Shown here: positions 4,102-38,473 of the stretch, one piece after another | Layout: the number at the start of each line of letters is the position of its first letter | Position numbering within the stretch: the stretch's first letter is position 1 | DNA from: Verrucomicrobiota bacterium | GTDB taxonomy: Bacteria > Verrucomicrobiota > Verrucomicrobiia > Limisphaerales > SXQI01 | Direction: 5' to 3' | DNA: 64,000 nt | NCBI GenBank assembly: GCA_033762115.1 | Contig: JANRLX010000111.1 | Location: 14,399 to 78,398 of the forward strand | The notes under the pieces: model-generated | The model's input: the letters and a program-made list of their open reading frames with translations, nothing else | What the model was told of the DNA's origin: nothing | The model's database searches: none | Made by a program: the position numbers and the translations under genes

Positions 4102-4118
4102 GTTCAGATTCAATTTCA

Positions 4119-4149
4119 GCCCGGCATTTTAACGAATGCCGGGTTTTTT
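4119..4149 (+). terminator. Rho-independent terminator of typA
   Basis: GCCCGGCATT-ttaacg-AATGCCGGGT followed by a T run. Confidence 0.85.
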
Positions 4150-4230
4150 ATTGTCCTGAGCCCGGTTGCATCAGTCCAGATCAGGACTCTCAAATATCTT
4201 GCCACCGGTTATGTCTGTATTTATGAGATA

Positions 4231-4833
4231 TTGTTCACTGTGAAAAGACGCTGGATCATTGTTCCCGTTCTGTTCAGCGTGGCGTTGATTCTCCTTTTCG
4301 GGCTAATCACGCGGCGGCATCGACAGGAACAGATGCGGGAACATCGTTTTGACCAGGCAATACTCCAGACAGCTCAGCGGTATAACATTGATCCTGCCCT
4401 GATTAAAGCGGTGATCTGGCAGGAAAGTCGCTTTCGTCCTGAAGCCCGGGGTGCCGCAGGAGAAATCGGCCTCATGCAGGTGCGCGACCTGGCAGCGGAA
4501 GAATGGGCTGAGGCGGAGGGGTTGGAAAATTTTTTTCATGAGCAAATCATGGATCCGGTAAAAAATATCCAGGCTGGCAGTTGGTATCTCGCGAAGGTGA
4601 TGAAACGGTATACAGACACCGATAATCCGATTCCCTACGCCCTGGCGGATTATAATGCCGGTAGGACGCATGTGTTGAAATGGATCAAGGGAGAGGCGAA
4701 AACAAATTCAGAGGCGTTCCTGAACCAGATTGCATTTCCCGGCACACGCAAGTATGCAGAAAATGTCATGAACCGGGTTCCGGAATATCAGCGACAGTTC
4801 ACACTTGCGGCTCAATCCACCCCGGCGCGTTGA
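4231..4833 (+). CDS. Soluble lytic transglycosylase (SLT domain) with membrane anchor
   Basis: QES catalytic motif, GLMQ and ADYNAG motifs; N-terminal TM helix. Confidence 0.9.
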   Translation: MFTVKRRWIIVPVLFSVALILLFGLITRRHRQEQMREHRFDQAILQTAQRYNIDPALIKAVIWQESRFRPEARGAAGEIGLMQVRDLAAEEWAEAEGLENFFHEQIMDPVKNIQAGSWYLAKVMKRYTDTDNPIPYALADYNAGRTHVLKWIKGEAKTNSEAFLNQIAFPGTRKYAENVMNRVPEYQRQFTLAAQSTPAR

Positions 4834-4841
4834 TCCGCTCA

Positions 4842-5777
4842 TTATTGCTGGTAGGCCTTCGGATTTTTCATCGTTTCGAAGAACTCAGCCTGCATCGCTT
4901 TCAGGTTGTTACCATCACGCGGGATTGTGATGGCCATTCCATCATAATCGACCGCTTTGGTTAAACAGTTCGGATTATAGAGCTGGAAAATCCAGGGCGC
5001 ATCACCCCACTGGTTGGCTTTGCCATGACCCTGGAAGGCATATTCCCGAAGAAAATCGCAGAGCGGATTTTTTGGAAGTTGGTTAAATGGCTCCGGGTCC
5101 CATGAGCTGACCTGGTCCCAAAAATAGCCGCGGGCCCAGTTGGCAAAAACAAAATGTTTCATCGTGATGTCCCACGCCCAGCCATCGGAGCCGTTGTAAC
5201 CGCGCCCATCAATTTGAAATACAATGATCCTGTTGGTAATGGATGGGTCGGTCAGGAATGCGCTCGCAACCGTCGTGCAGGAACCACCAACAAAAAGGAG
5301 TAGCGGTTTTTCAAAAGTTGCTTTGCGGGCTTCCGCCAGAATCAACTCGCTGCCGGCGGTTTTTTCGAATTTGGTATCTTCCAGTTTTCCGCTGGCAGGC
5401 TTTTCAATGGCAACTGTCGATCCGATTACCGCGTCCGGAATATTCCGCATCCCGCTGGCACGAGCGAGTTTCAGGAGGCGTTCCACTTCATCGGTCTGCT
5501 GCTTTAATGTGTGCGCATACTTTGTCTCCCAGCCAAAGGTGCAGCGGGTAACAATATTTCCCTTAAGCTTTGCCTCACCGAGGCTTGCCTTTGCCCAGAT
5601 GTAGGCGGCGTCAGGCACATCAGTCCACCAGTCATTATCATAGATAATGGGACAATCTGGAGAGACTCTTGCCAGGCGCACACCGCCATCCTGAATTTTG
5701 TATTCAGGTGGAACTGCCCAAAGTTGCGGGCACTGAACGCACGCTAAAATAAGTAAAATCAAGTGAATCAAACGCAT
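4842..5777 (-). CDS. Secreted protein, nucleoside-hydrolase-like fold
   Basis: Signal peptide MRLIHLILLILAC...; IIYDND motif, GSELILAEA and GGSCTTVA segments resemble IU-nucleoside hydrolases. Confidence 0.6.
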   Translation of the reverse strand: MRLIHLILLILACVQCPQLWAVPPEYKIQDGGVRLARVSPDCPIIYDNDWWTDVPDAAYIWAKASLGEAKLKGNIVTRCTFGWETKYAHTLKQQTDEVERLLKLARASGMRNIPDAVIGSTVAIEKPASGKLEDTKFEKTAGSELILAEARKATFEKPLLLFVGGSCTTVASAFLTDPSITNRIIVFQIDGRGYNGSDGWAWDITMKHFVFANWARGYFWDQVSSWDPEPFNQLPKNPLCDFLREYAFQGHGKANQWGDAPWIFQLYNPNCLTKAVDYDGMAITIPRDGNNLKAMQAEFFETMKNPKAYQQ

Positions 5778-5781
5778 ATTC

Positions 5782-6795
5782 TTAATTTTCAACTGCAACG
5801 GAAGCCGATTGTTCTTCCTGCGCTGCCTTGAAGAGGATGGCAATATCATCCTCCAAACCTTTCTCATCTTTTTGATTGGGACCAACACTGTAAATCAAAT
5901 AAATCCTGCCGGTTCGTTGAAGCAGGAGTGCTTTTCCGGTGTACGGGTCCAGGGGAACACTCTTCATGTAATCGCCGGGCAATTGATCCAGAGATCGTAA
6001 AATTTTCCTCTCTTTTAAATCGTAATGACGAACAGCGGACGCTGCTGCAACTACTTCAAGGCGAGCCGTGGCAAGCTCCCTTTTGGCTTTGGTCTTATCA
6101 ATTATTCTTTTTTGGGAAATGCCCAATAATCTTAAGACACCCTCCAGGAGTTTATTCGGTTTTGATTTCAGCCTGAAGTATTCCTCTCGTTTTATGACCT
6201 CATCGAAATGAATCCTGCTGCTTTTCACAATCTCCAGTCCGGCTGCAAGCTCAGCAGATTCAGATAGTGAAAGTTTCTCCACCAGTTTCATGAGCGGTTC
6301 CAAAGCCATCGATTGAAGCGAGATCCCAACCAGAGCGGCAAGAATTGGGCCTTTTTCAGAAATCTGTCCTGCCTGAATCAATTGCAGGTAGGTTTGGGCG
6401 GCCTGGTTCCATTCCTTGTTCGCTTCCTCAAACTTGCCTTTGATACGATAGGCGTAGGCAATTTTTCTAAATTCAGACAAGCCAGAATTTGTCATTCCTG
6501 TAGGAGAATAAACGGATTCCGGCACTTCCCCTGGCAGGCGAACGGCCTCGGCGATTTGTTGAAATGCGAGCAGGTTATTCGTGACGAACTGCCCAAAATT
6601 ATTCGTCACCGTTGAAGGATTCTCGGTGAAGGAGTTGGCTGCCTTTACCAGCAAATCATAACTGTTCGGATTCGGAGCAGGCGGCAGCAGACTGCCTTCC
6701 GGTTCAGGTGTGGATGAGAGGTAGCCGAGGACCAGAATCAAGGCGATGATGACTCCGAGCGTGATCCATGTCCTCTTTTTTGGCTGCGAAAGCAT
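5782..6795 (-). CDS. Membrane-anchored helical hypothetical protein with a GspG-like C-terminal motif
   Basis: N-terminal TM helix; C-terminal PLDPYTGK..YLIYSVGPNQKDEKG..DDI. Confidence 0.7.
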   Translation of the reverse strand: MLSQPKKRTWITLGVIIALILVLGYLSSTPEPEGSLLPPAPNPNSYDLLVKAANSFTENPSTVTNNFGQFVTNNLLAFQQIAEAVRLPGEVPESVYSPTGMTNSGLSEFRKIAYAYRIKGKFEEANKEWNQAAQTYLQLIQAGQISEKGPILAALVGISLQSMALEPLMKLVEKLSLSESAELAAGLEIVKSSRIHFDEVIKREEYFRLKSKPNKLLEGVLRLLGISQKRIIDKTKAKRELATARLEVVAAASAVRHYDLKERKILRSLDQLPGDYMKSVPLDPYTGKALLLQRTGRIYLIYSVGPNQKDEKGLEDDIAILFKAAQEEQSASVAVEN

Positions 6796-6860
6796 GATTC
6801 ATTTTAAATAAGCATGCCTTCCCTGGCCAAGCTATTATGGGAGATGGTGTCGACTACTTT

Positions 6861-6980
6861 TCAGTTTGCTCTGGATTGGTGAAGACTCGGGATCAGGACA
6901 ATCAAGGTCAGGTAGAGAAGGGTGTAACCCAGGGTAATGCCAAATCCCGGAAGGACGCTGCGTTCCTTAAATCGGAGCAT
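6861..6980 (-). pseudogene. cysT: Truncated sulfate ABC permease CysT (first ~31 residues only)
   Basis: Hand translation MLRFKERSVLPGFGITLGYTLLYLTLIVLIP-SLHQSRAN*. SVLPGFG.TLGYTL.YL.LIVLIP is the CysT N-terminus; it starts 2 bp after the previous operon gene. Confidence 0.8.
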
Positions 6981-6982
6981 AT

Positions 6983-7849
6983 TTAAAGATTGGAAGCGTA
7001 GGCTTTCAATTTCCTGTACTCCGATAAAATCGAAATCAGAGCTGATACCAGAGCCCTTGTCTGCAGGAAAACAGGTGCTGCTTTCGGGGTAATCAGCTCG
7101 ATTTCGAAAGGTTTGGGCCGGATTTTGGGAGGACCACTTAAGGCGCCCTGATATTCAGCGCGAATAATTCCATTGCGGGATTGCAGTCCATCAATCAAAC
7201 CACTCTGCGCCAGCGGCAACAGTTCTCCGGCAGCTTTCAATGCAGGTTCGATCAGGTTCCGGGTCAATGTGGCCCCATGAACAAATCCGTGCATTCCATC
7301 TGACGAATCGCTGGAATGAAGGGAGACCATTCCATGAAAGGCGTGGCTGCAAATTTCCCGTTCAAGGAGTTCCACTTCAGGCTCCACCGAGTTGTTCCAA
7401 AACTCCCGGTTAAGATCTCTTCCCCGCCGTGAGCAACGAGTATTATCTTCATAACCAGTGGGGTTGCAGAGCGGATAAATGAACAGGCAAAAATCCTTCG
7501 CAATGGCGGGCTCTGACTCGATCACCTGGATAAATTGTGCCAGCGCAGACGGTCCTTCCGGTTCATTGCCATGAATCCCTGCAAAAATCCCCAGGCGAAT
7601 CGGATCGTCCCCCCCTTTTGGGCCGATGAAAATGTAACGAGGCAATCGATAGGATTGGCTATCGACCTCAAAACAGGGCAGAGGTTTTGATAAAAGGCTG
7701 TGCGAAGTGGTGGACAGCTTTTCCAGAGGCGCAAGAAAATCCTCTATGGATCGTCGGCTCGCACTCACGCGCGTTGCTCCTGTAGGCTGGTGGATTGAGA
7801 AGCTCATGCAATGTGGCATGATGCGGCCCTGCTGCCAGGGCCGCATCAT
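6983..7849 (-). CDS. M14 family metallopeptidase / succinylglutamate desuccinylase-like protein
   Basis: GIHGNEPEG (HxxE), NPTG..R, DLNREF and SLH motifs; start codon uncertain. Confidence 0.8.
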   Translation of the reverse strand: MMRPWQQGRIMPHCMSFSIHQPTGATRVSASRRSIEDFLAPLEKLSTTSHSLLSKPLPCFEVDSQSYRLPRYIFIGPKGGDDPIRLGIFAGIHGNEPEGPSALAQFIQVIESEPAIAKDFCLFIYPLCNPTGYEDNTRCSRRGRDLNREFWNNSVEPEVELLEREICSHAFHGMVSLHSSDSSDGMHGFVHGATLTRNLIEPALKAAGELLPLAQSGLIDGLQSRNGIIRAEYQGALSGPPKIRPKPFEIELITPKAAPVFLQTRALVSALISILSEYRKLKAYASNL

Positions 7850-7858
7850 GACTCGGAT

Positions 7859-8866
7859 TTAAGGTTTATAGATTTGGTCAAATGTGCCGCCGTCATCGAA
7901 ATGCTCTTTTTGGGCCTTTCTCCAGCCGCCAAAAAGTTCATCGATCGTGAAGAGGTTCACCTTGGGAAACGCATTGGCGTATTTGGCCGCGGCGGATGGA
8001 GCGTTGGGGCGATAATGATGTTTCCCAATGATTTCCTGCCCTTCATCTGAATACAGGTATTGCAGATACGCCTGGGCCACTTCAAGGGTCCCTTTCTTTT
8101 TTGCATTCTTGTCCACAATCGCAACTGGCGGTTCAGCCAGGATACTGACAGAAGGCACAACGATCTCGAATTGTCCTTTGCCCAACTCCTTTTGAGCGAG
8201 GAATGCTTCATTTTCCCAGGAGATGAACACGTCGCCAATGCCGCGTTGCACAAAAGTGGTCGTTGAACCACGCGCCCCGGAATCAAGCACGGGAACGTTT
8301 TTATAAATCTGCGCTACAAAATCCTTGGCTTTGGCCTGGTCATTGCCATGTTTTTTTAGGGCATATCCCCAGGCGGCAAGGTAATTCCACCGCGCCCCGC
8401 CAGATGTTTTCGGGTTTGGTGTCACCACGGAAATCCCGGGCTTGGCAAGGTCATCCCAATCCTTCACCCCCTTTGGATTTCCTTTCCGAACAAGGAAAAC
8501 GATGGTGGAGGTATAGGGCGCACTGTTATTGGGGAAACGTTTCTGCCAGTCTGCTGGAAACAGCCTGGCCTTGTCGGCAATTGCGTCGATATCATATGCC
8601 AGCGCAAGCGTGACCACGTCCGCGGAAAGGCCATCAATGACAGCCCGGGCCTGTTTGCCCGAGCCGCCGTGTGACTGCTGGATCGTTACGGTATCGCCGC
8701 TTTTGGCTTTCCAATGCTGCGCGAAAGCAGCATTCAACTCCTGGTAAAGTTCCCGGGTGGGATCATAGGAAACGTTCAACAGGGTGATATTTTTTGCAGC
8801 GCTGTCTGTGACCAGCGCAGCCGCAACGGCAACAACAGTCAGTAAGGTTTTAATTTTAATGTTCAT
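7859..8866 (-). CDS. sbp: Sulfate ABC transporter substrate-binding protein
   Basis: [42 protein letters not shown] and WENEA motifs. Confidence 0.95.
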
Positions 8867-8885
8867 ATATAGTGTAGTGAATAGG

Positions 8886-10289
8886 TTAAAATGAGATTTG
8901 GCCGCGGGTCAGAAGCACTTGTTCTCCCTCCTGGAGCAGAGAGGAAGTCCCTCCATCGAAATCAGTTTGTTCATAGTTCACCTGGACCTTGAAATTGCGA
9001 TTCAGGTGCCAGTTAAAACCGGCTGTCCATGAGAGTGCCTCATTTGCCGAACTGGCAGGACTCGCAAAAACGGGGAAGGCAGCGTCATCCACTTCCAGCC
9101 CGCTCACGCGCGCCGTCAATTCCCACGCCCCCCAACCTTCTCCGCCAAGGGCAAACGGTTTCCTGGGATTTACTGCCTTAAAGGCATTCTTTTCACCCGT
9201 TAAAAAATAGGAAGCTGAAACCTGCCATGCGCGGTTTTCGATATTGCCAAAAGTGGCGGCCCCATCATCTCGACGGAGTTCCTGGTCGGAAATCGCATAT
9301 TCACCCAGCAGTCCAAATGGCCCGTAATAGTAATAGAATTGAGGGCTAATCCTCCAATTCTCTCCATCGGCAACCACATTGGGCGCGGCTGCTGTTCCTG
9401 CGCCGCTGCGAAATGCAAAGAAGCGCTGTTGTCCCGGAGTGGAATAGGCGCGGGGAGCCCCTTCCCGGTTTCCATAAGTACCGGCAATCCCGATACCGAG
9501 CCCTTGCAGGCCTTCAATGTCCGAACTCTTGAACGGTTCAGCAAAAATGCGGGCTGCAATGTCCTTTTCATCGTCGCTGGATTCAATATCTGCGCTTCCC
9601 CCATCCGCAACACCATTGAACGCACCAAGCTGGTAAGTGAGCGTATTCTCAAAAAGCGTACCATGCACCATGACGCCCACATCCCTATTGGGCAGCAGTT
9701 GCGTTGGATAGGCGCGCTCAACAAAAAGAAGGTTCCCTCCGGATTGCAACCTTTCCAATCCCACCGGCTCTTTGAACTTTCCCGCCTGGATATTCAATGC
9801 GGGCCAAAGTTTGGCATTGAAGTAGGCATCCTGCACATAGGCATCATTCGCAGCGCTGCTGGTGACGCCGGAACCGAAATCGAGCATTAAACGATAATCG
9901 AATTTTTCGAATACAGTTCCTTCGAAAATCGGTCGAACCCTCCGAAGCAGGAAGGTATCATTGGCTGTCCCTGCGGAATGATCATCCAGGAAAAAACGAC
10001 TGTCCGCCTGGATGTAGCCACGCAGCTTGAGAACGAAATTCGTATCCGCGGATTGAAGAGAAAAGCCACCTGCCCCGGCGGTCAGAAGAGGGGTGGTTTT
10101 AGCCTTTTCCGCCGAAGCTTCCTTTTGCAATTCCAGTTGCCGTTTCAAAATTTTAATCTCCTGGTCAAGCTGCTCCACCTTTGTCCGAAGCTCCTCCTGC
10201 TGTTCGGCCTGCACTGGGCCGGAAAAAGGTTCGCTTGAGATGATTCCGAGTGCGATCAAAGCCGCCACCCGCCTGTAATTGTTCTGCAT
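8886..10289 (-). CDS. OprO/OprP family anion-selective porin
   Basis: Signal peptide, N-terminal coiled coil, [28 protein letters not shown] motifs, terminal Phe. Confidence 0.88.
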
Positions 10290-10392
10290 GAGTAATTAAT
10301 TTCATAAGAACCTCCGGTGGTCCGGTCAGTCGCTCGATTTCTTCTGTTTGACCTCCAGTTGTCCTGGTGAGCCAGCCTGGGGGAGGGTGCAG

Positions 10393-10557
10393 TCAGGAAT
10401 TTTTCAAACGCACTTTTTCTTTGCGTTCGATCTGCACGACCTTTCCGTCCTGCACAACGATTTCCACTGAGCCAAAACGAATGCCACGAATGGCATTGAG
10501 AATCTGCTTCTCAGTTTCGCTCAGGCAAACTCCTGAATCCTGTTGACCTCCGTCCAT
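10393..10557 (-). CDS. YezD/DUF2292 (OscA-like) small protein
   Basis: IRFGSVEIVVQDGKVVQIERKEKVR motif; heads the sulfate-uptake operon. Confidence 0.88.
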   Translation of the reverse strand: MDGGQQDSGVCLSETEKQILNAIRGIRFGSVEIVVQDGKVVQIERKEKVRLKNS

Positions 10558-10606
10558 AGCATATTGCGAGCGGTTCAAAAATCCATGAACCCAGCCGCAT
10601 TTAAAT

Positions 10607-10629
10607 ATCTCTAGCAACTTAGTAGAGAT
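10607..10629. promoter_or_regulatory. Palindromic operator candidate upstream of the sulfate operon
   Basis: ATCTCTA-N9-TAGAGAT, 50 bp upstream of the yezD start. Confidence 0.5.
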
Positions 10630-10845
10630 TTAGCAAGGGGAAAAATGGGAATTTTTTATCACGCGTTTTCTGCTTCCAAAAAAAGCGGTTTAAAAATGCC
10701 AGAGTCCGCGACTTTGAAGGGCACTTTCTGCTTAAATTGGCTGGTAGGACTCTCTAGAATTCGAAACTTTCCGGAAGAATGGCATTGGTGATGAGATTTC
10801 CTTTTGACTCCGATCTTTCCTTCGTTATTCTGTCCGGCCTATTTT

Positions 10846-12102
10846 ATGGCGAAATTGACCGTTAACGATCTGGATGTGCGTGGGAAACGTGTGCTGATGC
10901 GCGTGGACTACAACGTTCCCATGGAAGAGAAGAATGGTCAGATGATGATCAATGAATCGGCGCGTATCCGTGAGACCTTGCCAACGTTGCGGTTGCTTGG
11001 GGAAAAGGGTGCCCGGATTATTTTGACTGCTCACCTGGGCCGTCCGGATGGAAAGCGGGAGCCGTCGATGTCACTGCGCCCTGTGGCGGCCAAACTTTCC
11101 GAATTGCTGGGCAAGCCAGTGGCTTTCGTGGATCAATGCGTTGGGCCTGCGGTGGAATCGCATGTTGCCGGGATGAAGGATGGGGAAATTGTTTTGCTGG
11201 AGAATGTCCGTTTCCATCCCGAAGAAGAAAACAATGATCCTGGATTCTCCGAGCAATTGGCCCGGATTGCGGATGTCTATGTCAATGATGCGTTTGGCGC
11301 TGCTCATCGGGCTCATGCCTCCACTGCTGGGGTTGCTGAAGTGATGGCCAAACGTGGCGCACCTCGCGCGGCAGGGTTGTTGATGGAACGTGAGCTGAAG
11401 TTTCTTGGCGAGGAACTCGAGAACCCAGCGCGCCCGTTTGTCGTTATCCTGGGTGGAGCAAAAGTTTCTGACAAAATCAAGGTGATCGACCGCCTTTTGG
11501 AAAAGGCGGACACGATCCTAATCGGTGGAGCGATGGCTTACACTTTTAAATTGGCTCAGGGCGCCAGCGTGGGTAAATCGCTGGTGGAACCGGACCGGGT
11601 TGGTTTGGCGAATTCAGCCCTGGAAAAGGCCCGCCAGAAGAACATCCCATTTCTGATTCCGACCGATAACGTGATCGCCAATCCGGTGGATAGCGGAAAG
11701 AAGAATAAAAAGGGAAAAACAATTTTTGACCTGCAGAATCCTCGGGTGAACTCGGCGCGTGACATTCCAGCCGAAGCTGAAGGAGTTGACATTGGACCGG
11801 CTTCGGCAGCGACTTACAAAACGGAGATTCTTAAGGCGAAGACGATCCTCTGGAATGGGCCGATGGGAATTTTTGAAGATTCGCGGTTTGCCGAGGGGAC
11901 ATTTGCCGTGGCCCGCGCTGTGGTGGAAGCCACTGAAAAGCATGGCGCCAAAAGCATCATTGGGGGAGGGGACAGCGTGAAGGCGATCAACTCCTGCGGA
12001 CTGGGTGACAAAGTGACTTTCATGAGCACTGGGGGGGGGGCGAGCCTTGAGTTTCTCGAAGGAAATATTCTTCCTGGGGTGGCAGCTCTTTCCGACAAAT
12101 AA
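10846..12102 (+). CDS. pgk: Phosphoglycerate kinase
   Basis: RVDYNVP, HLGRP, LLENVRF, VNDAFGAAHRAHAS, GGAKVSDK, WNGPMG and STGGGASLE motifs. Confidence 0.97.
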   Translation: MAKLTVNDLDVRGKRVLMRVDYNVPMEEKNGQMMINESARIRETLPTLRLLGEKGARIILTAHLGRPDGKREPSMSLRPVAAKLSELLGKPVAFVDQCVGPAVESHVAGMKDGEIVLLENVRFHPEEENNDPGFSEQLARIADVYVNDAFGAAHRAHASTAGVAEVMAKRGAPRAAGLLMERELKFLGEELENPARPFVVILGGAKVSDKIKVIDRLLEKADTILIGGAMAYTFKLAQGASVGKSLVEPDRVGLANSALEKARQKNIPFLIPTDNVIANPVDSGKKNKKGKTIFDLQNPRVNSARDIPAEAEGVDIGPASAATYKTEILKAKTILWNGPMGIFEDSRFAEGTFAVARAVVEATEKHGAKSIIGGGDSVKAINSCGLGDKVTFMSTGGGASLEFLEGNILPGVAALSDK

Positions 12103-29929: not shown

Positions 29930-30985
29930 GTGAACAGTATCAAGGGCCGTGGCGCCGCGGAAAATCCTGCCAATCGTTTCGAGGAGATTCATCTCCAGAG
30001 GGACATCGACTGGAACCCGGAGGACGATGGCCCGCTGCATACCCGCATTTTTCACGACACCACGCAAAAGATCATCAATTACAATGACAGCCCTGACGTG
30101 GGATTTGATGCGAGCGTGAATCCGTATCGCGGTTGTGAGCATGGCTGCATTTATTGCTTCGCGCGTCCCACCCATGAATATCTGGGGTTCTCATCCGGGC
30201 TGGATTTCGAAAGCAAAATCATGGTCAAGCTGGATGCGCCAACTCTGCTGCGCAAAGAGCTTTCCTCACGCTCATGGAAACCGCAGGTGATCGTGATGAG
30301 CGGGGTTACGGATTGCTATCAGCCACTGGAACGTAAATTGCGCCTGACACGCGGCTGCCTGGAAGTCCTGGCGGAGTTTCGCAACCCGGTCTGCATCATC
30401 ACCAAAAACCATCTTGTGACTCGTGATGTGGAACTTTATGCGGAACTGGCGCAATACCAGGCCGCTGCGGTGAATATTTCCATCACGACGTTGGACCCGG
30501 AATTGACCCCGATCCTTGAGCCGCGCGCATCGCTGCCAAGAATGCGCCTGGCGGCAATCAGGGAACTGAGTGCTGCCGGGGTGCCGGTCGGCGTCATGGT
30601 CGCGCCGGTGGTCCCGGGAATCACGGATTTCGAGATGCCGCAGATCGTTGCGGCGGCGGTTGAAGCCGGGGCAAAGTTTGCCGGATATGTGCCGGTGCGT
30701 TTGCCTTACGCGGTAAAGGATTTGTTTGATACCTGGTTGCAACGGCATTTTCCTGACCGCAGGGAAAAAGTGTTGAATGGCATTCGCGCCTTACGTGACG
30801 GAAAATTGAACGATCCCAACTTTGGATCGCGCCTGGAAGGGAGCGGACCTGCTGCGGAACGGCTTTCAAAATTATTTGAAGTGTCCTGCCGAAAGGCCGG
30901 GTTGCCCAATGAACGATCAAGCCTTTCGACGGCGGCATTTCGGGTGCCTTCCGGCCCGCAGATGCTTTTACAATTGCAAGGTTAA
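29930..30985 (+). CDS. PA0069/Rv2578c family radical SAM protein (SplB-like)
   Basis: NPYRGCEHGCIYCFAR (CxxxCxxC) and TDCYQP motifs; GTG start inferred. Confidence 0.9.
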   Translation: MNSIKGRGAAENPANRFEEIHLQRDIDWNPEDDGPLHTRIFHDTTQKIINYNDSPDVGFDASVNPYRGCEHGCIYCFARPTHEYLGFSSGLDFESKIMVKLDAPTLLRKELSSRSWKPQVIVMSGVTDCYQPLERKLRLTRGCLEVLAEFRNPVCIITKNHLVTRDVELYAELAQYQAAAVNISITTLDPELTPILEPRASLPRMRLAAIRELSAAGVPVGVMVAPVVPGITDFEMPQIVAAAVEAGAKFAGYVPVRLPYAVKDLFDTWLQRHFPDRREKVLNGIRALRDGKLNDPNFGSRLEGSGPAAERLSKLFEVSCRKAGLPNERSSLSTAAFRVPSGPQMLLQLQG

Positions 30986-30999
30986 TTCAAAACCCGCTA

Positions 31000-31365
31000 T
31001 CAGCGCGGCTGTCCGATTCGGATGAGATTGCCGTCAATATCAACGACGGCGAACTCACGCATTCCCCACGGCTTATCCTCAATGGCGTCCTGGCGCGGGA
31101 TTCCCTTTTTTGGTAACTGCGCGGAAGCAAAAGTGCAGTGGATGCTGTCCACGTCCAACACCCTGATGTAACAGCCTGCGCTCGATTCGGCAGGAACCAG
31201 TTCCTTATGGGTAAAAAAGTGAATCTCAATCGTGCCGCGCGTCAGGATCAGATAATCACCAAAACCATGAATCTCTCCCTTGAAACCGAGTCGTCGATAA
31301 AATGCCAGCGTGTTCTCCAGCGAGCGACTGGGCAGAATGGGAATCGCAATGTCCTGCTGTTGCAT
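31000..31365 (-). CDS. VOC/glyoxalase (bleomycin-resistance-like) protein
   Basis: AFYRRLGF and KPWGMREFAVVDIDGNLIRIGQ motifs. Confidence 0.9.
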   Translation of the reverse strand: MQQQDIAIPILPSRSLENTLAFYRRLGFKGEIHGFGDYLILTRGTIEIHFFTHKELVPAESSAGCYIRVLDVDSIHCTFASAQLPKKGIPRQDAIEDKPWGMREFAVVDIDGNLIRIGQPR

Positions 31366-31453
31366 GGTGGTGGTGCAGTCCTGTTTCGAAATCTATTTTG
31401 CGAAAACATCCAGAAAGTGCAAATTTTTTGCCAGTGACTGAAATAGAGGAAAC

Positions 31454-32926
31454 CTATTCCCTGGGAAAACCGCCTGTATGGCAGTTATTGCAGGAGAAGT
31501 CTTCGTTGACCGCGTCGATGTGGAAGAAGGCGTGCCCTTTGGCCTCGAGTTTCTGTAGATCGGTTTCTGCGCTGCCTTGAGCCAGAATTGTGTGGCAGGA
31601 ATTACAGCTGCTCGCGGCGATCATGCGCCCATCGGTGCTCTTGTGTTGGCCATCGTGACAGCGGAAACATCCAAGCCATTCCTTGTGGCCTATGTTATCA
31701 GGATAAGCACGCCAATCCGCTTTCATCTCAGGGAAGAAATTTTGTTTGAAAATGGACTGCGCCGCAGCGATTGCCGATTCCATGCGTGGTTCTGCTGGAT
31801 ACAATGTTTTCAGATGTGCTGAGATCCGCGCAACGGCTTCCTCCTCGGTTGAATACTGAGCAGTCAGCACCGCGACCACGTTTGATTTAACCCACGGGAT
31901 TGTTCGGTCAATTTTCCCTGCCATGATCGCTTCATCCACTGCGTCATTTGGCGTGGAAAATTGATGTGCCGGACGGTTGTGACAATCCATGCAATCCATG
32001 GTTCGCACCTTATGCTTTTCCGGTGCATCCACAAAACCGGGGAGGCGATACTCCCTTTGCTGTCCTTTGCTGTCGGTCACGCGCACCCAGGGAATTGTCT
32101 GACGCTGGTCATCTGTCGCAAGGTATTCCACCTTGTTCGCCAGGTTCATGTGCCAATGAATTCCTCCCACATGCTCGTTACCGCCTCCAACATTCAAGGA
32201 CAAACGTACCGCGAACGCAGTGTTCGTTTCATCCGCTAAAAAATGATAGTAGGTTCGGTCCAACTGCCCGGAATTTCTTTCAGGCCAGTGACATTGCTCA
32301 CATGTCTCCTGGGCCGGACGCATGTTCGGCACAGGGGTTTTGATCGGCCGGTTGTAATCGCCTGTTAGGACACCCACCAACTGGTGTACTCCATTCAATT
32401 TGGCTTTCACATATGCGCTGGCGCCGTGCCCCACGTGACACTCAACGCAATCCACTCTTGCGTGCGGCGAATTTTGATATGCCGTATACTCCGGCTTCAT
32501 CGGTGTGTGGCAGGCCTTGCCACAAAATTGATTTGATTCCGTGTAACGATACGTTTCATAGCTACCCACCGCCGTCATCATGGCAAAGATCGCCGTGCCA
32601 AATGCAGCGCCAGCCAGAATCCTGCGATCACGCGGTCGCCGAAGATCGATCATGATGGCTGAAGGGGCTTCTGTCCCGGCCTTTTGTCGATGACGCCGAT
32701 GAATCCAGATGCCCAGGACCGCGAGCAGGAAACCGAGTAGCATGAACCCTGGTGCCACGACATACGCCAGCAATCCTATGTAGGGGTTTCCGCCGTGTGC
32801 GGTCATATCGATCGCAAACAGCAGCAGGAAAGCCAGTAAACCTCCCGCTGCAAGGATCGTTCCTGCCAGCGTCAGCCAGTTTCGGGACAGGCCAGGAGAA
32901 TGCCTGGGCTGGTTTGATTGGGACAC
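31454..32926 (-). CDS. NapC/NirT-domain heptaheme inner-membrane cytochrome c (ImcH-like)
   Basis: Three N-terminal TM helices, NPYIG and TESNQFC motifs; six CxxCH plus one CxxxCH. Confidence 0.88.
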   Translation of the reverse strand: MSQSNQPRHSPGLSRNWLTLAGTILAAGGLLAFLLLFAIDMTAHGGNPYIGLLAYVVAPGFMLLGFLLAVLGIWIHRRHRQKAGTEAPSAIMIDLRRPRDRRILAGAAFGTAIFAMMTAVGSYETYRYTESNQFCGKACHTPMKPEYTAYQNSPHARVDCVECHVGHGASAYVKAKLNGVHQLVGVLTGDYNRPIKTPVPNMRPAQETCEQCHWPERNSGQLDRTYYHFLADETNTAFAVRLSLNVGGGNEHVGGIHWHMNLANKVEYLATDDQRQTIPWVRVTDSKGQQREYRLPGFVDAPEKHKVRTMDCMDCHNRPAHQFSTPNDAVDEAIMAGKIDRTIPWVKSNVVAVLTAQYSTEEEAVARISAHLKTLYPAEPRMESAIAAAQSIFKQNFFPEMKADWRAYPDNIGHKEWLGCFRCHDGQHKSTDGRMIAASSCNSCHTILAQGSAETDLQKLEAKGHAFFHIDAVNEDFSCNNCHTGGFPRE

Positions 32927-32935
32927 GCGCAGTTC

Positions 32936-33268
32936 CTACTTTTTGAAAGCGCGCATTAACGTTACCAACTCCTTAATCTCGTCGTCAGAAAGTTTGTCTC
33001 CGAATGGTTTCATCGCTTCCTTTCCCTTGATTGTCTGACCTTCCTTGATCGATTTGAAAGCCCTTGCGTCGTCCAGTTCGGCCTGCACTTTTTCATCTGT
33101 GTAGTCCCTCGCGCCAGCCTGTTTTCCCATGCGTGTCTGCCCTTTTCCATCAGGTCCATGGCATTTTGCACAGTTTTTATCGTAGTTTGTTTTTGCGTCA
33201 GCCGCGCTGCTCGAAGCAGTTAGCAACACCATTGTGCAGATTACGGTTAGTAAGGTTTTGCTTTTCAT
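32936..33268 (-). CDS. Periplasmic monoheme class I cytochrome c
   Basis: Signal peptide, CAKCHG.DG.G and a distal Met in AMKPF..KLSDDEI. Confidence 0.92.
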   Translation of the reverse strand: MKSKTLLTVICTMVLLTASSSAADAKTNYDKNCAKCHGPDGKGQTRMGKQAGARDYTDEKVQAELDDARAFKSIKEGQTIKGKEAMKPFGDKLSDDEIKELVTLMRAFKK

Positions 33269-33275
33269 AAAATTC

Positions 33276-35420
33276 TCAGAAGCGGAAACGAAAAGCCGAA
33301 GACAAAATGTGCGCTTCGTAATCATTGCGACCTCCGAAGGTCTTATCAGACAAGGTGACCCACCCGTATTTGAGGGTCCATTGCATCGCACTGCTGAATC
33401 GATGTATCAGCGTCCCGGTGATCCCATGTTCCTCCGCCGACACCAAAAAGGGCACACTGACTGCCGAATTGTCAGAGAAGTTATCCGCATAGTACGTGAA
33501 GTATTGCGCCAGCAGATCAGTCTTTTCCGTCAATGCGTACCCCGCAGTTGCGGAGGCATCGATATAATCCTGGATCGATTTTTGTACCGCATTGGCTTGT
33601 CCGGCACTCGTGCTGAATGGAGTCTGGGTACGGTCCAGAACGTAATTCACCGCAGCCTGGAGGAGCAACCGTGGCAAAGGCGTCCAGGTAATGCTCTCTC
33701 CAATGATGTGTGAAGTCATCTCTGCGCTTTCCACTTCGCTCAATCGATCCATCCGGCTGTTGATCGTTGAAATCTGGAAATCATATCGAGTCACCAGCGA
33801 CAGCGATTGGATTGGTCGAAGGCTTATCCGGAAATTAATATCATCCGTGGTGAAATCCTGGTCACGAATGTAAGCGGGGTAACGATCACCACCTGTATTT
33901 AAAGTGCCGTCATTAGTGTGATCATAATCATTCCGGCGTTCCTTGTGATAGTATTGCGCGGCAAGATTCAATCCCGCTTTTGGATACCAGTTTGCGCCTG
34001 CAACATACTTTTGAGTAAAGCGTGTTGAATCGCTATCTCGAGAGATGGAAACCACCGGAGGCACTCCGTCCTCCAGCACCATTTCCCGTTCTCGCAGATC
34101 GCCATCACCCTGCAGCCATTCACCGCGGACATACAACACCCAGTTGGTGAGCCCCGTATAACGCGCTTCCAATCCTTCACTCACATCCACAAAGCTGCGT
34201 TCACGCGTGTTCTCGATGGCTTCAATGATCGCTGGCAAAGCCGGTGGTCCACCTACATTCGTTTCTTCAAAATCCGAAATTCCATCCTGCTCCTGTTTCT
34301 CGGCCCGGATGGACGGCACAATGGTGAGGTTCTCCCACGGCTCAAGCATTAAGTTCAAGTTCAGCACATGCTGATCGATTTTGGACCCTCCGGAGAGATC
34401 GAAAAATCCTTCATCACGCTGCTGCCGTCGTGCAAAGAGAGGGTCATATAACGCGTCATAATCAGCACCGTAAATGCGACTGCCGCCGATATCGGTGTCC
34501 AGCTTTGTGAGAGAGTAACCAGTCGTGAACAGGATTTTTTCGGAGAACCGTGTTTCCTGAAAAGCCCGCACGTTGAACAGATCTGTCTCTACGATTTCCC
34601 GTTGGGTCAAAAAGCGGTCTTGCGCCTCGCCCGGACGTCGTCGCATGTTACGCGAGTTGTCCTGGTCGGAATGTTCATAGCGTAATCCGACTCCAAATCT
34701 GGTATCCGCGATCGTATGTTCGCCATCCAGCCTGAGAATATCCCGATCTTCGTCGAGATTATAAAAACTCGGCACTATCCCACGCGTTTGCCCGGCAGGT
34801 AAGCCAAGTCCGGTATCTCCCCAAATTGTTGAGTCCTTTTGGCCGTCTCGGGTTTGGCGCGAGTAACCAAAGCGAATAATCGGCGCGTCCGGTAAGGTCA
34901 ACCCGCCTTCAAAGAACAGTTCGCTCCGGTCAACGAATAGTTCGTCATCGTACAGATCAAAAACCCGATCGTTGATCGGCAGATATCCTCCGGTACCATC
35001 ATACCAGGTACGAAACTCCCGGTAACCAGCCCGTAGGTAACCATAATCCGGATGTTTATATCCCAACGTTAAGGAATAATCGTCATTGTCGAAGATTCCC
35101 CGGCCATCCACTTCCAGGAGCCCTTTAGGCCCGACATCCTGTTCGTAATGGAAATCGGTAACCCCTCCATAGACATCTTTCGGGATCTGATGTCTCTCCA
35201 TGAACTGGGCTTCGTTTCCCTTGATAAAATTCCCACCAATGGAAACTTCAAGCCAGTTCCTGTAATCTGTTTCTTTTTTGGTTTCTAATTTAGGCGCTTC
35301 TGGCTCGGCTTTGACTGTCTGCTTCTCTTCACCAGCTGCCAGTGCAGCGCTGCACAGGCATGCCGCGGCGCATGCTCTCCTGAGACTGGCTTTTATCCAC
35401 CGTGTTGAACTTGTTTTCAT
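33276..35420 (-). CDS. MtrB/PioB-like outer-membrane beta-barrel
   Basis: 714 aa, signal peptide, amphipathic strands, terminal FRFRF; lies directly behind an MtrA-like gene. Confidence 0.82.
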   Translation of the reverse strand: MKTSSTRWIKASLRRACAAACLCSAALAAGEEKQTVKAEPEAPKLETKKETDYRNWLEVSIGGNFIKGNEAQFMERHQIPKDVYGGVTDFHYEQDVGPKGLLEVDGRGIFDNDDYSLTLGYKHPDYGYLRAGYREFRTWYDGTGGYLPINDRVFDLYDDELFVDRSELFFEGGLTLPDAPIIRFGYSRQTRDGQKDSTIWGDTGLGLPAGQTRGIVPSFYNLDEDRDILRLDGEHTIADTRFGVGLRYEHSDQDNSRNMRRRPGEAQDRFLTQREIVETDLFNVRAFQETRFSEKILFTTGYSLTKLDTDIGGSRIYGADYDALYDPLFARRQQRDEGFFDLSGGSKIDQHVLNLNLMLEPWENLTIVPSIRAEKQEQDGISDFEETNVGGPPALPAIIEAIENTRERSFVDVSEGLEARYTGLTNWVLYVRGEWLQGDGDLREREMVLEDGVPPVVSISRDSDSTRFTQKYVAGANWYPKAGLNLAAQYYHKERRNDYDHTNDGTLNTGGDRYPAYIRDQDFTTDDINFRISLRPIQSLSLVTRYDFQISTINSRMDRLSEVESAEMTSHIIGESITWTPLPRLLLQAAVNYVLDRTQTPFSTSAGQANAVQKSIQDYIDASATAGYALTEKTDLLAQYFTYYADNFSDNSAVSVPFLVSAEEHGITGTLIHRFSSAMQWTLKYGWVTLSDKTFGGRNDYEAHILSSAFRFRF

Positions 35421-35441
35421 AGTAGTTCTCCAGCTGTGGTT

Positions 35442-36251
35442 TTAGAACCGAAGTGATGAACTGATGTGCGAACCATGCACGGCCTCATGACAACCTGCCG
35501 TCCAGCAAGTGCCCCGTGAGAGGAACTGGCTGTGATCCCGTCCTCCAATGAAAATCGTTGCGGGCGGAACCTGCTGTTGAAAATGGCATTTCAAGCAGAG
35601 GTTCTGGTTGCGTTGGGTCAATAATTTGTCATTGGTGGTCCCGTGCGGATCGTGGCAAGTGGTGCAACCCTCCCGAACCGCTTCATGCTCGAACACAAAC
35701 GGTCCGCGTTGCGCAATGTGGCACTTGGCGCAGGTGTCTGAATCAGACGCCATTGTAAAAGGCCCGCCCGGTGTCGCCTGACCTTTATGCGGATCGTGAC
35801 ACTCGCTGCAACTCATCTTTCCATCGCCAATCGGATGGTGGTGTGGCAGTTGAAACCGGCCTTTCATCTCCAGGTGACACGAGAAACACACTTCCGGATC
35901 ACGGTTCGGATTAATGATGGTGTTCCGTGCTCCTCCAGATTCGTTATGCAAGCTGCCGGGGCCGTGGCAACTCTCGCACCCCACATTCCTGGCGTGATCT
36001 CCCTTTGCCATCAGCCGCGCATGTGTAGCCGACCCGAAATGCGCACTCACCCCGCCATGGCACTCCGCGCATGTTTCCGAGCCCACGAATGTGGATCCCG
36101 GAATATCCGGTGGTACAAACAAAGTTCGCTGAACGTTTACGCAGGATATCAATGTCGCCAGAGACAAAAGCAAAAGCGCAATGGCTCCTGCTCGACGTAC
36201 TGTTTTCTTCCTGCCTGAGCACAAACCGCGGGTTGGGGCTTGGTCTTTCAT
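35442..36251 (-). CDS. DmsE/MtrA/MtoA-like multiheme cytochrome c (8 hemes, probable lipoprotein)
   Basis: Seven CxxCH plus CWTAGCH; RGPFVFEH.AV, CHDPHG and VHGS motifs of the MtrA family; lipobox-like LISC. Confidence 0.88.
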   Translation of the reverse strand: MKDQAPTRGLCSGRKKTVRRAGAIALLLLSLATLISCVNVQRTLFVPPDIPGSTFVGSETCAECHGGVSAHFGSATHARLMAKGDHARNVGCESCHGPGSLHNESGGARNTIINPNRDPEVCFSCHLEMKGRFQLPHHHPIGDGKMSCSECHDPHKGQATPGGPFTMASDSDTCAKCHIAQRGPFVFEHEAVREGCTTCHDPHGTTNDKLLTQRNQNLCLKCHFQQQVPPATIFIGGRDHSQFLSRGTCWTAGCHEAVHGSHISSSLRF

Positions 36252-36610
36252 ATCTCCACCAGGAGCAATTCCTGATCAGTTGAATCGCAAAAACAATCGC
36301 CTGGGTAACTCTTTTCGCGCTTAAGCCTAGGAAGGTGAAAAACTTTCCGCTAACCGTTTCTTGGCTTTTTATTCTAATGATGAAAAATTTTAAGTTTGGC
36401 CCCCAGGAACGGTACAACCCTTTACGCAGGCCTCAGCCACAAGTTTGGAACGGCGGCAAATCCCTGCCTTTTTTTGCCTAAACAGAACCTGCGATTCGTG
36501 AAGAACACCGCGTGCGCAGTAAGAACGCTGCCAGAAAAACAATCGCTTGGATCAGTCTTGTCATTATTCACGAACGTTGAAATGACTCCATCAGCCTTAA
36601 ATCTCCCCAT

Positions 36611-38473
36611 TTATTCCACGGTGACACTTTTTGCGAGGTTGCGCGGTTTATCCACGTCGCAGCCGCGGCAGACTGCGATATGATAGGAGAGCAGTTGGAG
36701 GGGGATCACCCCGAGTAACGGAAAAATCGATTCAATCGTCGGGGGGACATAAATCACATCCTCAACCAGCGAGGTGATGGACTCATTCCCTTCCGTGGCG
36801 ATGGCAATGACCGGGCCTTTCCTGGCTTTGATTTCCATGAGGTTGCTCAAGGTTTTGTCATAGAGACCATCACTGGGAGCGAGGATGACCGTAGGGGTTT
36901 TCTCATCGATCATGGCAATCGGCCCATGCTTCATCTCTGCGGCGGGATACCCTTCCGCATGGATGTAGGAAATTTCCTTCAGCTTCAACGCTCCTTCCAA
37001 TGCGACAGGAAAAGTGTATTGCCTGCCGAGAAAGAAAAAATCCTCCGCTGCCGCATACTTTTGGGCGAGGGTTTTAATCCTGTCGTTTTGCGCTAGAATT
37101 TTTTCGATTTGGGACGGGACTTGCTCAAGGGCCTGGAGCACCTGTGAACCGCGCCGGGAGGACAAGGTGCGGATACGGCCCATCAGCAGCGCGAAGAGGG
37201 TGAGAACAGTGACCTGGGAGGTGAATGCCTTGGTGGAAGCGACCCCGATTTCCGGTCCCGCATGCAGGTAAATCCCGCCATGCGCTTCCCGGGCGATGGT
37301 GCTTCCGACCACATTACAGATGGAGAGGACCGGATGCCCGCGCCGTTTTGACTCCCGCAAGCCAGCCAGGGTATCGGCGGTTTCCCCGGATTGGGTGATG
37401 GCCAGGATCAAGGTGTTTTTTTCGATTGGAGCATTGCGGTACCGAAATTCACTCGCGTATTCAACTTCAACAGGGATGCAGGCGAGGTCTTCGAAAAGAT
37501 ACTCGCCCACCAGGGCGGCGTGCCAACTGGTGCCGCAGGCCACGATCACGATTTGATCCACCGCGCGAAGCTCAGCGAGCGAGACGTTCAAGCCGCCGAA
37601 TTTGGCAGTCACTTCTTCGCGATCAATCCGCCCGCGCATGGCATTCTGGACAGTGCGCGGTTGCTCAAAAATTTCCTTGAGCATGTAATGCGGAAATTCC
37701 CCCTTTTCACTTGCCTCAGCGTTGAATTCAATCTGGCTGATCTGGACTTTGGCGGTGTCCGAACCCAGGTTGTTGACGGAAAAATTATCTCGGGTCAACG
37801 TCGCCACATCATAATCATTCAGGTAGACGACCTGGCGGGTATGAGCAACGATTGCGGTGGCATCGCTCGCGAGGAAATTCTCACCTTCACCCACCCCGAT
37901 AATCAAGGGAGAGCCGCGCCGCGCGCCAACAATAAGTTCCGGGTGATCGGCGGAAATAACGGCAATACCGTAAGCGCCGATGACCTCCTTTAAGGCGTTC
38001 ATCACCGCCTGTGTCAGGATGTGGGTACCGTTTTGGGATGGTTTCGCTTTGAGTTTGTCGTAATGGCTGCCGATCAGGTGTGCAAGCACTTCAGTGTCGG
38101 TGGCGGATTTAAATGTATGCCCTTCCTGAATGAATCGTTCCTTGAGTCGGTCGTAGTTCTCGATAACGCCATTGTGGACAACGGCGATGCGCCCGCTTTC
38201 ATCCGTATGGGGATGGGAATTTTCGTCATTTGGGGGGCCGTGGGTGGCCCAGCGCGTGTGGCCAAGGCCGGTGTCACCGCTCAAGGGTGAGGAGGAGAGA
38301 AGGCGGGCGAGCCCTTCATCGATTTTCCCCTTCTTTTTGCATGTGTGGAGGGTTTGATCGCGGAGAACTGCTATTCCAGCGCTGTCATAACCCCTGTATT
38401 CCAGGCGTCGAAGCCCTTCCAGAATAATGGGGGCTGCCTGTTTTTTTCCCACATAACCGATAATTCCACACAT
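36611..38473 (-). CDS. glmS: Glutamine-fructose-6-phosphate aminotransferase
   Basis: MCGIIG start, LEYRGYDSAG, GHTRWATHG, QSGETADT and PRNLAKSVTVE motifs. Confidence 0.98.
   Translation of the reverse strand: MCGIIGYVGKKQAAPIILEGLRRLEYRGYDSAGIAVLRDQTLHTCKKKGKIDEGLARLLSSSPLSGDTGLGHTRWATHGPPNDENSHPHTDESGRIAVVHNGVIENYDRLKERFIQEGHTFKSATDTEVLAHLIGSHYDKLKAKPSQNGTHILTQAVMNALKEVIGAYGIAVISADHPELIVGARRGSPLIIGVGEGENFLASDATAIVAHTRQVVYLNDYDVATLTRDNFSVNNLGSDTAKVQISQIEFNAEASEKGEFPHYMLKEIFEQPRTVQNAMRGRIDREEVTAKFGGLNVSLAELRAVDQIVIVACGTSWHAALVGEYLFEDLACIPVEVEYASEFRYRNAPIEKNTLILAITQSGETADTLAGLRESKRRGHPVLSICNVVGSTIAREAHGGIYLHAGPEIGVASTKAFTSQVTVLTLFALLMGRIRTLSSRRGSQVLQALEQVPSQIEKILAQNDRIKTLAQKYAAAEDFFFLGRQYTFPVALEGALKLKEISYIHAEGYPAAEMKHGPIAMIDEKTPTVILAPSDGLYDKTLSNLMEIKARKGPVIAIATEGNESITSLVEDVIYVPPTIESIFPLLGVIPLQLLSYHIAVCRGCDVDKPRNLAKSVTVE

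Follow-up and report, generated by a model that had tools for sequence, protein, structure and literature searches.

Four adjacent genes in a verrucomicrobial genome may encode an electron conduit that would lead from the quinone pool of the inner membrane, across the periplasm and through the outer membrane, to the outside of the cell. The genes, here called A, B, C, and D, lie at positions 31454-36251 of a 64,000-nucleotide stretch of DNA, referred to below as the window, which corresponds to positions 14399-78398 of contig C111 in a 134-contig assembly that is 95.26% complete. All four are on the minus strand. Gene A (35442-36251; 269 amino acids [aa]) encodes an octaheme c-type cytochrome of the MtrA/DmsE-like type, which is predicted to be a lipoprotein (lipobox L-I-S-C37), and gene B (33276-35420; 714 aa) encodes a heme-less outer-membrane β-barrel with 26 predicted strands that is MtrB-like by fold. 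Gene C (32936-33268; 110 aa) encodes a secreted class I monoheme cytochrome c, and gene D (31454-32926; 490 aa, with a GTG start) encodes an inner-membrane heptaheme cytochrome of the NapC/NirT type with the predicted architecture of ImcH. We put the probability that A to D constitute a single operon encoding a trans-envelope electron conduit at about 0.5. The more specific proposal of a self-contained four-gene conduit, in which an ImcH-type quinol dehydrogenase and a dedicated His/Met monoheme cytochrome encoded directly upstream of it would feed a lipid-anchored octaheme within an MtrB-fold barrel, is advanced only tentatively.

A first-pass annotation of the window had described four co-oriented genes separated by 21, 7, and 9 bp, and these gaps between A, B, C, and D were as stated. 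Purine runs resembling Shine-Dalgarno sequences were present ahead of the starts of A, B, and D. For gene C, the mechanical list of open reading frames places the start at 33391 (a GTG), which makes the gene overlap B, and the ATG at 33268 was preferred. The heme counts of 8, 0, 1, and 7 that had been given for the four genes hold if atypical motifs are included; by CXXCH motifs alone, the numbers are 7, 0, 1, and 6. Specifically, A has seven CXXCH motifs and one CX4CH (CWTAGCH, residue 249), B has none, C has one CXXCH, and D has one CX3CH (CGKACH at residue 135) followed by six CXXCH at residues 160, 209, 312, 420, 441, and 479. Both atypical motifs are conserved in the related loci described below, the CX4CH in 20 of 20 orthologues of A and the CX3CH in 13 of 13 orthologues of D. 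Moreover, only eight stop-to-stop frames in the entire 3.92-Mb assembly contain at least three CXXCH motifs, and since two of these eight are found at this cluster, the clustering of heme genes is not due to chance.

Gene A was matched by phmmer to the MtrA chain of the solved Mtr complex (6r2q_A) with an E value of 5.3e-30, in two stretches that cover residues 57-264, and this homology upholds its earlier designation as an MtrA-like octaheme. Conservation was assessed in an alignment of 20 sequences, consisting of the window sequence and those of 19 of 20 related loci (locus L044 was left out). All eight heme motifs were invariant, as were eight further histidines (H77, H102, H139, H155, H189, H203, H240, and H259), which together with the eight motif histidines are therefore enough for bis-His ligation of eight hemes. 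Cys37, at the end of the lipobox-like L-I-S-C, was invariant as well, and the A family is therefore predicted to be lipid anchored. In the alignment of A with MtrA, motifs 1 to 4 of A paired with four MtrA motifs and motifs 3 to 8 paired with six later ones; because motifs 3 and 4 match two alternative pairs of MtrA motifs, A appears to correspond to a decaheme chain without one of its two-heme units. When folded alone, A gave a model with a predicted local distance difference test (pLDDT) value of 45.4 and a predicted template modeling (pTM) score of 0.25, which was too poor for a fold search. The C terminus of A (35442-35459) and of its orthologues has a conserved L-R-F or L-R-Y ending; a terminal aromatic residue of this type is more familiar in outer-membrane barrels than in periplasmic cytochromes.

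Gene B matched no family in Pfam or NCBIfam above its cut-off. Faint matches were obtained to the Pfam family of phosphate porins O and P (16.8 bits versus a cut-off of 20.9) and to the GSU2204 family (20 bits versus 350). A word-indexed search with B returned 640 proteins at E values of ≤0.001 among 8,000 scored candidates; nearly all of the 640 were unnamed, and the named relatives belonged to the Verrucomicrobia, together with one labeled Haliangiales. An AlphaFold2 model of B, which was computed from an alignment of 31 family members, had a mean pLDDT of 83.1 and showed 26 strands in residues 56-713. The barrel is preceded by no more than a signal peptide and a short disordered linker, indicating that B has no plug, and no plug family was detected in B with Pfam at E values up to 0.1. 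In a Foldseek search with the model, MtrB (6r2q_B) ranked first with an E value of 3.5e-15 and TM scores of 0.56 and 0.61, and the next match was a TonB receptor at 1.9e-10. VIA-align likewise gave MtrB a Z score of 21.6, with a root mean square deviation of 3.8 Å over 577 of 649 residues (model residues 52-714), compared to 17.2 for the next row; TonB receptors reached Z scores of at most 16.0 and aligned with only part of the model. The sequence identity between B and MtrB in these structural alignments was 11 to 13%. With MtrB as the top structural match, 26 strands, and no plug, the label of MtrB-like porin was retained, and the alternative that the first-pass annotation had itself named, a plugged TonB-type receptor, was not what was found.

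It had also been asked whether the barrel can house the cytochrome. A complex was modeled from residues 46-714 of B and 38-269 of A, and the model placed A in the lumen of B with a score of 0.89 (0.90, 0.88, and 0.89 in separate runs), versus 0.00 for the best of three controls. Of 80 solved complexes, 58 scored this high, as did 2 of 110 mismatched pairs; these counts hold only roughly here, since alignments prepared for this analysis were used, one for each protein. At least 82% of the contacts agreed between runs, and the pLDDT of the partner was at least 78. The residues of B that touch A occupy every second position along most strands between residues 196 and 664, which is the pattern of a lumen face, and the residues of A that touch B span positions 46-269, with the C-terminal residues 268 and 269 included. 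The model thus suggests that A would sit within the lumen of B.

The product of gene C carries a signal peptide and scored above the cut-off on both PF13442 (47.3 bits) and PF00034 (40.1 bits), so its designation as a monoheme cytochrome proved sound, and it can be specified as a secreted protein of class I; its proposed role would be that of a shuttle carrying electrons across the periplasm. Residues C33, C36, H37, G41, T45, G48, and M86 were invariant in an alignment of 20 sequences, and the invariance of M86 indicates His/Met ligation of the heme. The best solved relative of C is cytochrome c-552 of Kuenenia (Ks_3358; E value of 9.5e-13), and none of its 18 solved relatives at E values of ≤0.01 was an MtoD chain.

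Gene D encodes three hydrophobic segments (at about residues 17-45, 48-77, and 102-121), after which the heme motifs follow; the CX3CH and the six CXXCH were all invariant in 15 aligned sequences. D scored 51.9 bits on PF03264, the N-terminal region of NapC/NirT (cut-off of 24.1), over residues 105-194, and when the D family profile was compared with solved chains, it matched only the quinol dehydrogenase NrfH (2j7a_C) at an E value of 1.1e-4 over residues 110-213. The label of ImcH-like heptaheme, which had been applied earlier, is in keeping with these predicted helices, motifs, and homology. The D family is large (7,976 of 8,000 scored candidates at E values of ≤0.001), and its full-length relatives at 42 to 46% identity are in records titled Acidobacteriaceae, Terriglobales, Pyrinomonadaceae, KSB1, Calditrichota, and Desulfobaccales. 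The genome collection was also scanned with D, and among the best 80 loci, 69 of the 75 complete matches, which come from several phyla, had exactly three hydrophobic segments, one CX3CH, and six CXXCH; none of these 80 loci was from Geobacter. At one of the loci (L073; D match at 8001-9485), the open frame runs on to 1,221 aa with 17 CXXCH motifs, which may represent either a fusion of ImcH with a downstream multiheme protein or a sequencing frameshift. Five others (L054, L063, L066, L075, and L086), with D homologues of 46 to 56% identity, come from records titled uncultured Bifidobacteriaceae or Bifidobacterium, titles that look mislabeled; L054 carries the entire A-B-C-D cluster.

The arrangement is conserved. 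A search with B over 401 genomes of the phylum gave matches in 31, with this genome included, and in one family a match was found in 20 of 35 genomes. About 16 kb around the best match was examined in the 20 best-scoring other genomes, the remaining 10, with weaker and mostly split matches, being excluded. A adjoined B at all 20 of these loci, C was present at 16, and D was present at 13. Eight of the 13 loci with D have a contiguous A-B-C-D, one has A-B followed after a 4-kb gap by C-C-D, and four have the order C-D-A-B. D was missing from the fetched stretch at the other seven loci, and at two of these (L045 and L046) A-B-C is kept without D. Viewed from D, C was directly upstream in 36 of the 80 best loci, 45 of which had 5 kb on both sides, and A and B were both within the fetched flanks in 13, with A or B truncated at the end of a contig in three more. 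None of the 24 loci at which D was less than 45% identical had C directly upstream or A-B. Therefore, A-B and C-D are two tightly conserved pairs that are often, but not always, joined, and the fact that A-B is linked to D in two gene orders (ABCD and CDAB) argues for selection on the linkage.

Several of the related loci carry additional redox genes. At loci without A-B, D is followed by 11-heme proteins, and NrfD-type genes are found near D; at L052, a 13-heme protein comes after A-B. Proteins with 13 or 9 hemes are also encoded at L041, L043, L049, and L050. Among three large proteins that were scanned, a cytochrome b561 domain at the C terminus was recognized above the cut-off of 30.1 bits in the proteins at L039:10987-13269 (33.1 bits) and L052:4551-7118 (55 bits) and below it at L085:9544-11694 (21.6 bits), and multiheme neighbors similar to those of L039, L052, and L085 are also found at L058, L064, L069, and L074. 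The large multiheme neighbors that were scanned look like inner-membrane proteins of the CbcL/MtrH/MtoC type, an architecture described in the accessible part of Zhong and Shi (2018), and not like MtrC-like surface cytochromes. The 13-heme b561 protein after A-B at L052 has a CbcL-like architecture, i.e., that of another quinol-pool module, and ImcH-like and CbcL-like genes are neighbors at loci of the relatives. At L062, genes for ResB and CcsA (by Pfam) lie between B and C-C-D, and genes for a Rieske protein and cytochrome b follow D (3816-7000 and 9627-11481); frames of similar size occupy the same places at L072 (4079-7107 and 9592-11445).

Taken as one pathway, the four proteins would operate as follows. 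D, anchored by its three helices, would pass electrons to or from the menaquinone pool on the periplasmic side of the inner membrane; C, a secreted monoheme protein of small size with His/Met ligation, would ferry electrons over the periplasm; and A, a lipid-anchored octaheme threaded through the lumen of B, would take the heme chain to the cell surface. The path of electrons would thus lead from the quinone pool through D, C, and A-in-B to the outside. As no surface decaheme is encoded here and none was found in the genome, the external partners would most likely be soluble or colloidal compounds able to get to the mouth of the barrel, such as humic quinones, chelated Fe(III) or Mn, or Fe(II). 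Gene anatomy, homology, fold, conserved linkage, and the maturation genes described below are shown directly by the data, and from these we infer the completeness of the conduit, the A-B complex, the shuttle role of C, the coupling to quinol, the direction, and the substrates. The first-pass annotation held that the direction of electron flow cannot be read from sequence, and we agree. The same hardware could run inward. Outward flow, in which an organoheterotroph would oxidize quinol and respire extracellular acceptors of high potential, is given an even chance and is considered likelier than inward flow. It is favored because it agrees with the one function of the ImcH family that has been tested, the oxidation of quinol when acceptors have potentials above about -0.1 V (Levar et al., 2014), because an anoxic humic habitat has been reported for verrucomicrobial porin-cytochrome clusters, because A-B alternates with CbcL-like modules, and because RuBisCO was not found in the assembly.

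A number of observations weigh against an outward-flowing MtrAB-like conduit. The score of A on the DmsE/MtrA family TIGR03508 (159.7 bits) is below the cut-off of 192.2, and that on its best NCBIfam match, the GSU2203 decaheme family NF041028 (174.2 bits), is below the cut-off of 325; A is therefore a relative, and not a member, of both families, and in place of the ten CXXCH motifs that define the DmsE/MtrA decahemes it has 8 hemes. The profile of the B family (31 members), when compared with the sequences in the PDB at E values up to 10, found no MtrB chain, the best match being an unrelated chain at 0.47, so that the likeness of B to MtrB is structural only. Since MtrAB is already a solved complex, the A-B model may pass by likeness and does not prove that this pair binds. 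D was likened to the Geobacter protein through the published description of the latter. C-D is often found without A-B and therefore has a role for which A-B is not needed. Furthermore, His/Met class I cytochromes usually have a high midpoint potential, which suits delivery to oxidases better than the reduction of a bis-His chain of the MtrA type, and the genome encodes three catalytic subunits of heme-copper oxidases. Lastly, the absence of a surface cytochrome is shared with the Fe(II)-oxidizing MtoAB and PioAB, which according to the available parts of the published descriptions have no extracellular component.

The last three of these points are those expected if the same hardware carried electrons inward, such that Fe(II) or reduced humics would be oxidized at the A-B mouth and the electrons passed through C to a terminal oxidase, while D would act as a side branch that reduces quinone, the role suggested for CymA in the Mto pathway of Sideroxydans. 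In line with this scheme, the operon encodes no surface multiheme protein and no orthologue of the large multiheme proteins of the relatives was found in the genome, and a second A-like gene, described below, accompanies a monoheme-fused barrel and a cupredoxin that recall Cyc2 and rusticyanin. Nevertheless, we regard inward flow as unlikely. The assembly, which is 95% complete, yielded no RuBisCO large subunit; this leaves Calvin-cycle lithoautotrophy on Fe(II) unsupported and fits a heterotroph. Energy coupling is not known for enzymes of the NapC/NirT type, and the uphill reduction of quinone by such an enzyme would therefore be unfavorable. In addition, the oxidation of quinol is the only process in which homologues of ImcH had been implicated according to Zhong and Shi (2018), and the verrucomicrobial clusters published by He et al. 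(2017) came from an anoxic hypolimnion.

A further possibility is that the two pairs are merely neighbors, with C-D serving as a general quinol:cytochrome c oxidoreductase that feeds the oxidases of the cell or other periplasmic reductases, while the A-B conduit has another periplasmic partner. The conservation data can be read in this way, in that C is directly upstream of D at 36 of the 80 D-centered loci and A and B are present at only 13, D was missing at 7 of the 20 B-centered loci (with A-B-C standing without D at L045 and L046), and the loci without A-B have D followed by 11-heme proteins, one of them with a weak cytochrome b561 match, with NrfD-type genes nearby. On the other hand, D lies within a few kilobases of A-B at 13 of 20 loci and in two gene orders, C stays with A-B at 16 of 20, and the gaps in the window are just 7 to 21 bp, all of which make such independence rather improbable. 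That B is an ordinary solute porin or TonB-type receptor and A an unrelated periplasmic cytochrome, with no transfer of electrons through the outer membrane, has in its favor that B belongs to no curated family and gave the phosphate porin hint noted above and that TonB-dependent receptors populate the lower ranks of both structure searches, but a plug-less barrel with 26 strands, not 22, from residue 56 onward, a full-length top match to MtrB clear of the TonB receptors, the adjacency of A and B at 20 of 20 loci, and the complex score of 0.89 versus 0.00 for controls make it very improbable.

Compared with MtrCAB of Shewanella (6R2Q), the proposed verrucomicrobial conduit shares the homology of A to MtrA, the plug-less 26-strand fold of B, the adjacency of the two genes with A before B, and the predicted position of A within the lumen of B. 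It differs in that A has 8 hemes and not 10, a CX4CH as its last motif, and an invariant lipobox cysteine, MtrA being a soluble protein unlike the predicted lipid-anchored A. Moreover, no similarity to MtrB was detected in the sequence of B, there is no MtrC, and the inner-membrane partner is ImcH-like and not CymA. The four-part logic, without a surface cytochrome, is shared with MtoA-MtoB-MtoD-CymA of Sideroxydans and with PioAB of Rhodopseudomonas. The Mto cluster combines an MtrA-like cytochrome and a barrel with a small class I cytochrome that has one heme and with a cytochrome of the NapC/NirT type that interacts with the quinone pool. Heme ligation in MtoD is bis-His, whereas the invariant M86 of C points to His/Met ligation; like MtoD, C is a class I monoheme cytochrome from an Mto-like cluster, in which it is encoded between B and D. 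Other differences from these systems are that D is of the heptaheme ImcH type with three transmembrane helices, versus the tetraheme CymA with one, that A is an octaheme, and that the host is a probable heterotroph in which RuBisCO was not found.

D resembles ImcH of Geobacter sulfurreducens (GSU3259), by description, in having three N-terminal helices, a CXXXCH as the first motif, seven hemes, and homology to NapC/NirT around helix 3 and the first hemes. These are the features given for ImcH in the accessible parts of Levar et al. (2014) and Zhong and Shi (2018). In Geobacter, imcH is monocistronic according to Levar et al. (2014), unlike D, which probably shares an operon with genes for a monoheme cytochrome and an MtrAB-like pair. 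Within the part of Zhong and Shi (2018) that was available, one ImcH homologue was listed in the Verrucomicrobia and 19 in the Acidobacteria, and neither mtrAB nor mtoAB was reported beside any imcH. A and B also resemble Pcc of Geobacter (OmaB-OmbB-OmcB) and the GSU2203/GSU2204 pair in that a periplasmic octaheme is encoded beside a barrel, OmaB being described as an octaheme in the accessible literature; the scores of A and B are far under the cut-offs of the GSU2203 and GSU2204 families (325 and 350), and there is no OmcB-like surface cytochrome here.

That porin-cytochrome genes had been predicted in this phylum before, as the first-pass annotation stated, is correct. The accessible text of He et al. 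(2017, mSphere) describes a novel porin with no fewer than 20 strands alongside a periplasmic octaheme in six metagenome-assembled genomes of Verrucomicrobia and in several isolates, names Opitutus terrae PB90-1 among the cultured carriers, judges the clusters to be nonhomologous to the Shewanella and Geobacter systems, and proposes extracellular electron transfer to humics. The phylum, the strand number of the porin, and its position beside a cytochrome with eight conserved heme sites all agree with what was found here, and by description A-B and the pair of He et al. (2017) very probably belong to the same family. In contrast to the nonhomology stated in that part of the paper, A is clearly homologous to MtrA and B is MtrB-like by fold; the text also names no inner-membrane component, apart from the words "ET in IM" in a legend. 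The verrucomicrobial conduit was still unverified according to the available part of Peterson et al. (2020). A literature search limited to article text found no description of imcH beside mtrAB-like genes in Verrucomicrobia or of the four-gene arrangement; figures and supplements, such as Fig. 7 of He et al. (2017), may show these genes. The porin and octaheme core was thus already predicted in the phylum in 2017, and that search turned up no published link to ImcH and a monoheme cytochrome.

Verrucomicrobia are among the most abundant bacteria of soils and lakes and have been treated as polysaccharide-degrading aerobes or fermenters. If the four-gene conduit is real, then abundant and nominally aerobic heterotrophs of soil and freshwater could respire, or oxidize, humics and iron, and the long-sought electron acceptor of the ImcH family would be named. 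A working conduit would also tie Verrucomicrobia to iron and humic redox cycling and to the flow of carbon away from methanogenesis, a connection drawn in the accessible text of He et al. (2017). The electron acceptor of ImcH was the missing piece in the available part of Levar et al. (2014), and it is made testable by the monoheme gene that is directly upstream of D in this window, as it is at 36 of 80 related loci. The crossing of the outer membrane by an eight-heme, lipid-anchored relative of MtrA in a sequence-divergent 26-strand barrel without a surface cytochrome is made testable as well. The verrucomicrobial four-gene family, kept in two gene orders, is a counterexample to the lack of mtrAB or mtoAB beside imcH reported in the 2018 survey. 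Overall, the arrangement is widespread in the phylum and was partly anticipated in print, and its function is proposed from sequence and models.

The host had been taken for a probable verrucomicrobium, a view that is supported by the relatives of B and D, which are Verrucomicrobiae or Verrucomicrobiota wherever they are labeled; the orthologues were found by searching the same phylum. Genes for cytochrome c maturation, a check that had been proposed earlier, were present in the genome and belong to System II, with two CcsA-type matches (91.1 and 90.7 bits) and a ResB-type match (34.3 bits), one CcsA/ResB pair being adjacent on contig C19. As had been noted for the operon, no MtrC-like gene or other large surface-type multiheme gene is encoded in or next to the cluster, and when six large multiheme proteins of the relatives were used as queries against this genome, only matches at the level of heme motifs were obtained (best E value of 1e-5). 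The only candidate surface cytochrome seen in the genome is a lipoprotein-like octaheme of 626 aa with eight CXXCH motifs, encoded on contig C11 (43690-45570; L139:3694-5571) and unlinked to the operon; it has a subthreshold match to MtrC/MtrF domain II/IV (25 bits versus a cut-off of 30).

The probable start of the operon is a noncoding stretch of 359 bp upstream of A (36252-36610, read on the minus strand), in which a promoter would be expected. No sigma-70-like site was found there by a consensus scan, and a promoter scan of positions 30900-36700 gave one promoter-like site, inside B, versus 4.3 expected. The same interval contained 12 terminator-like sites versus 6.3 expected, none of which was informatively placed. 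No sequencing runs, RNA included, were listed as containing the operon. The cluster is flanked by a gene of the glyoxalase family (by Pfam) and by open frames that appear housekeeping-like from their translations.

A second locus with related genes was seen elsewhere in the genome. Contig C56 (179-1024; L138) encodes a paralogue of A with 49.6% identity, seven CXXCH motifs, and one CX4CH, and the next frame runs off the end of the contig. On contig C124 (37277-40372; L137), the rest of a PSCyt1 monoheme domain (E value of 2e-13) is fused to a paralogue of B with 26.8% identity, which is followed by a gene for a single protein that combines a cupredoxin (PF00127, 37.6 bits) with Big_7. The ends of the two contigs would thus appear to join as one locus, with a gene split by the contig break. 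The fused cytochrome-porin and the cupredoxin together recall the parts of Cyc2- and rusticyanin-based iron oxidation. Two loci of relatives from the taxonomic order to which this genome belongs (L051:3783-6203 and L053:6971-9538) encode barrels of 806 and 855 aa, respectively, each with one CXXCH and located beside an orthologue of A, and these barrels are of the same fused type as that of the second locus.

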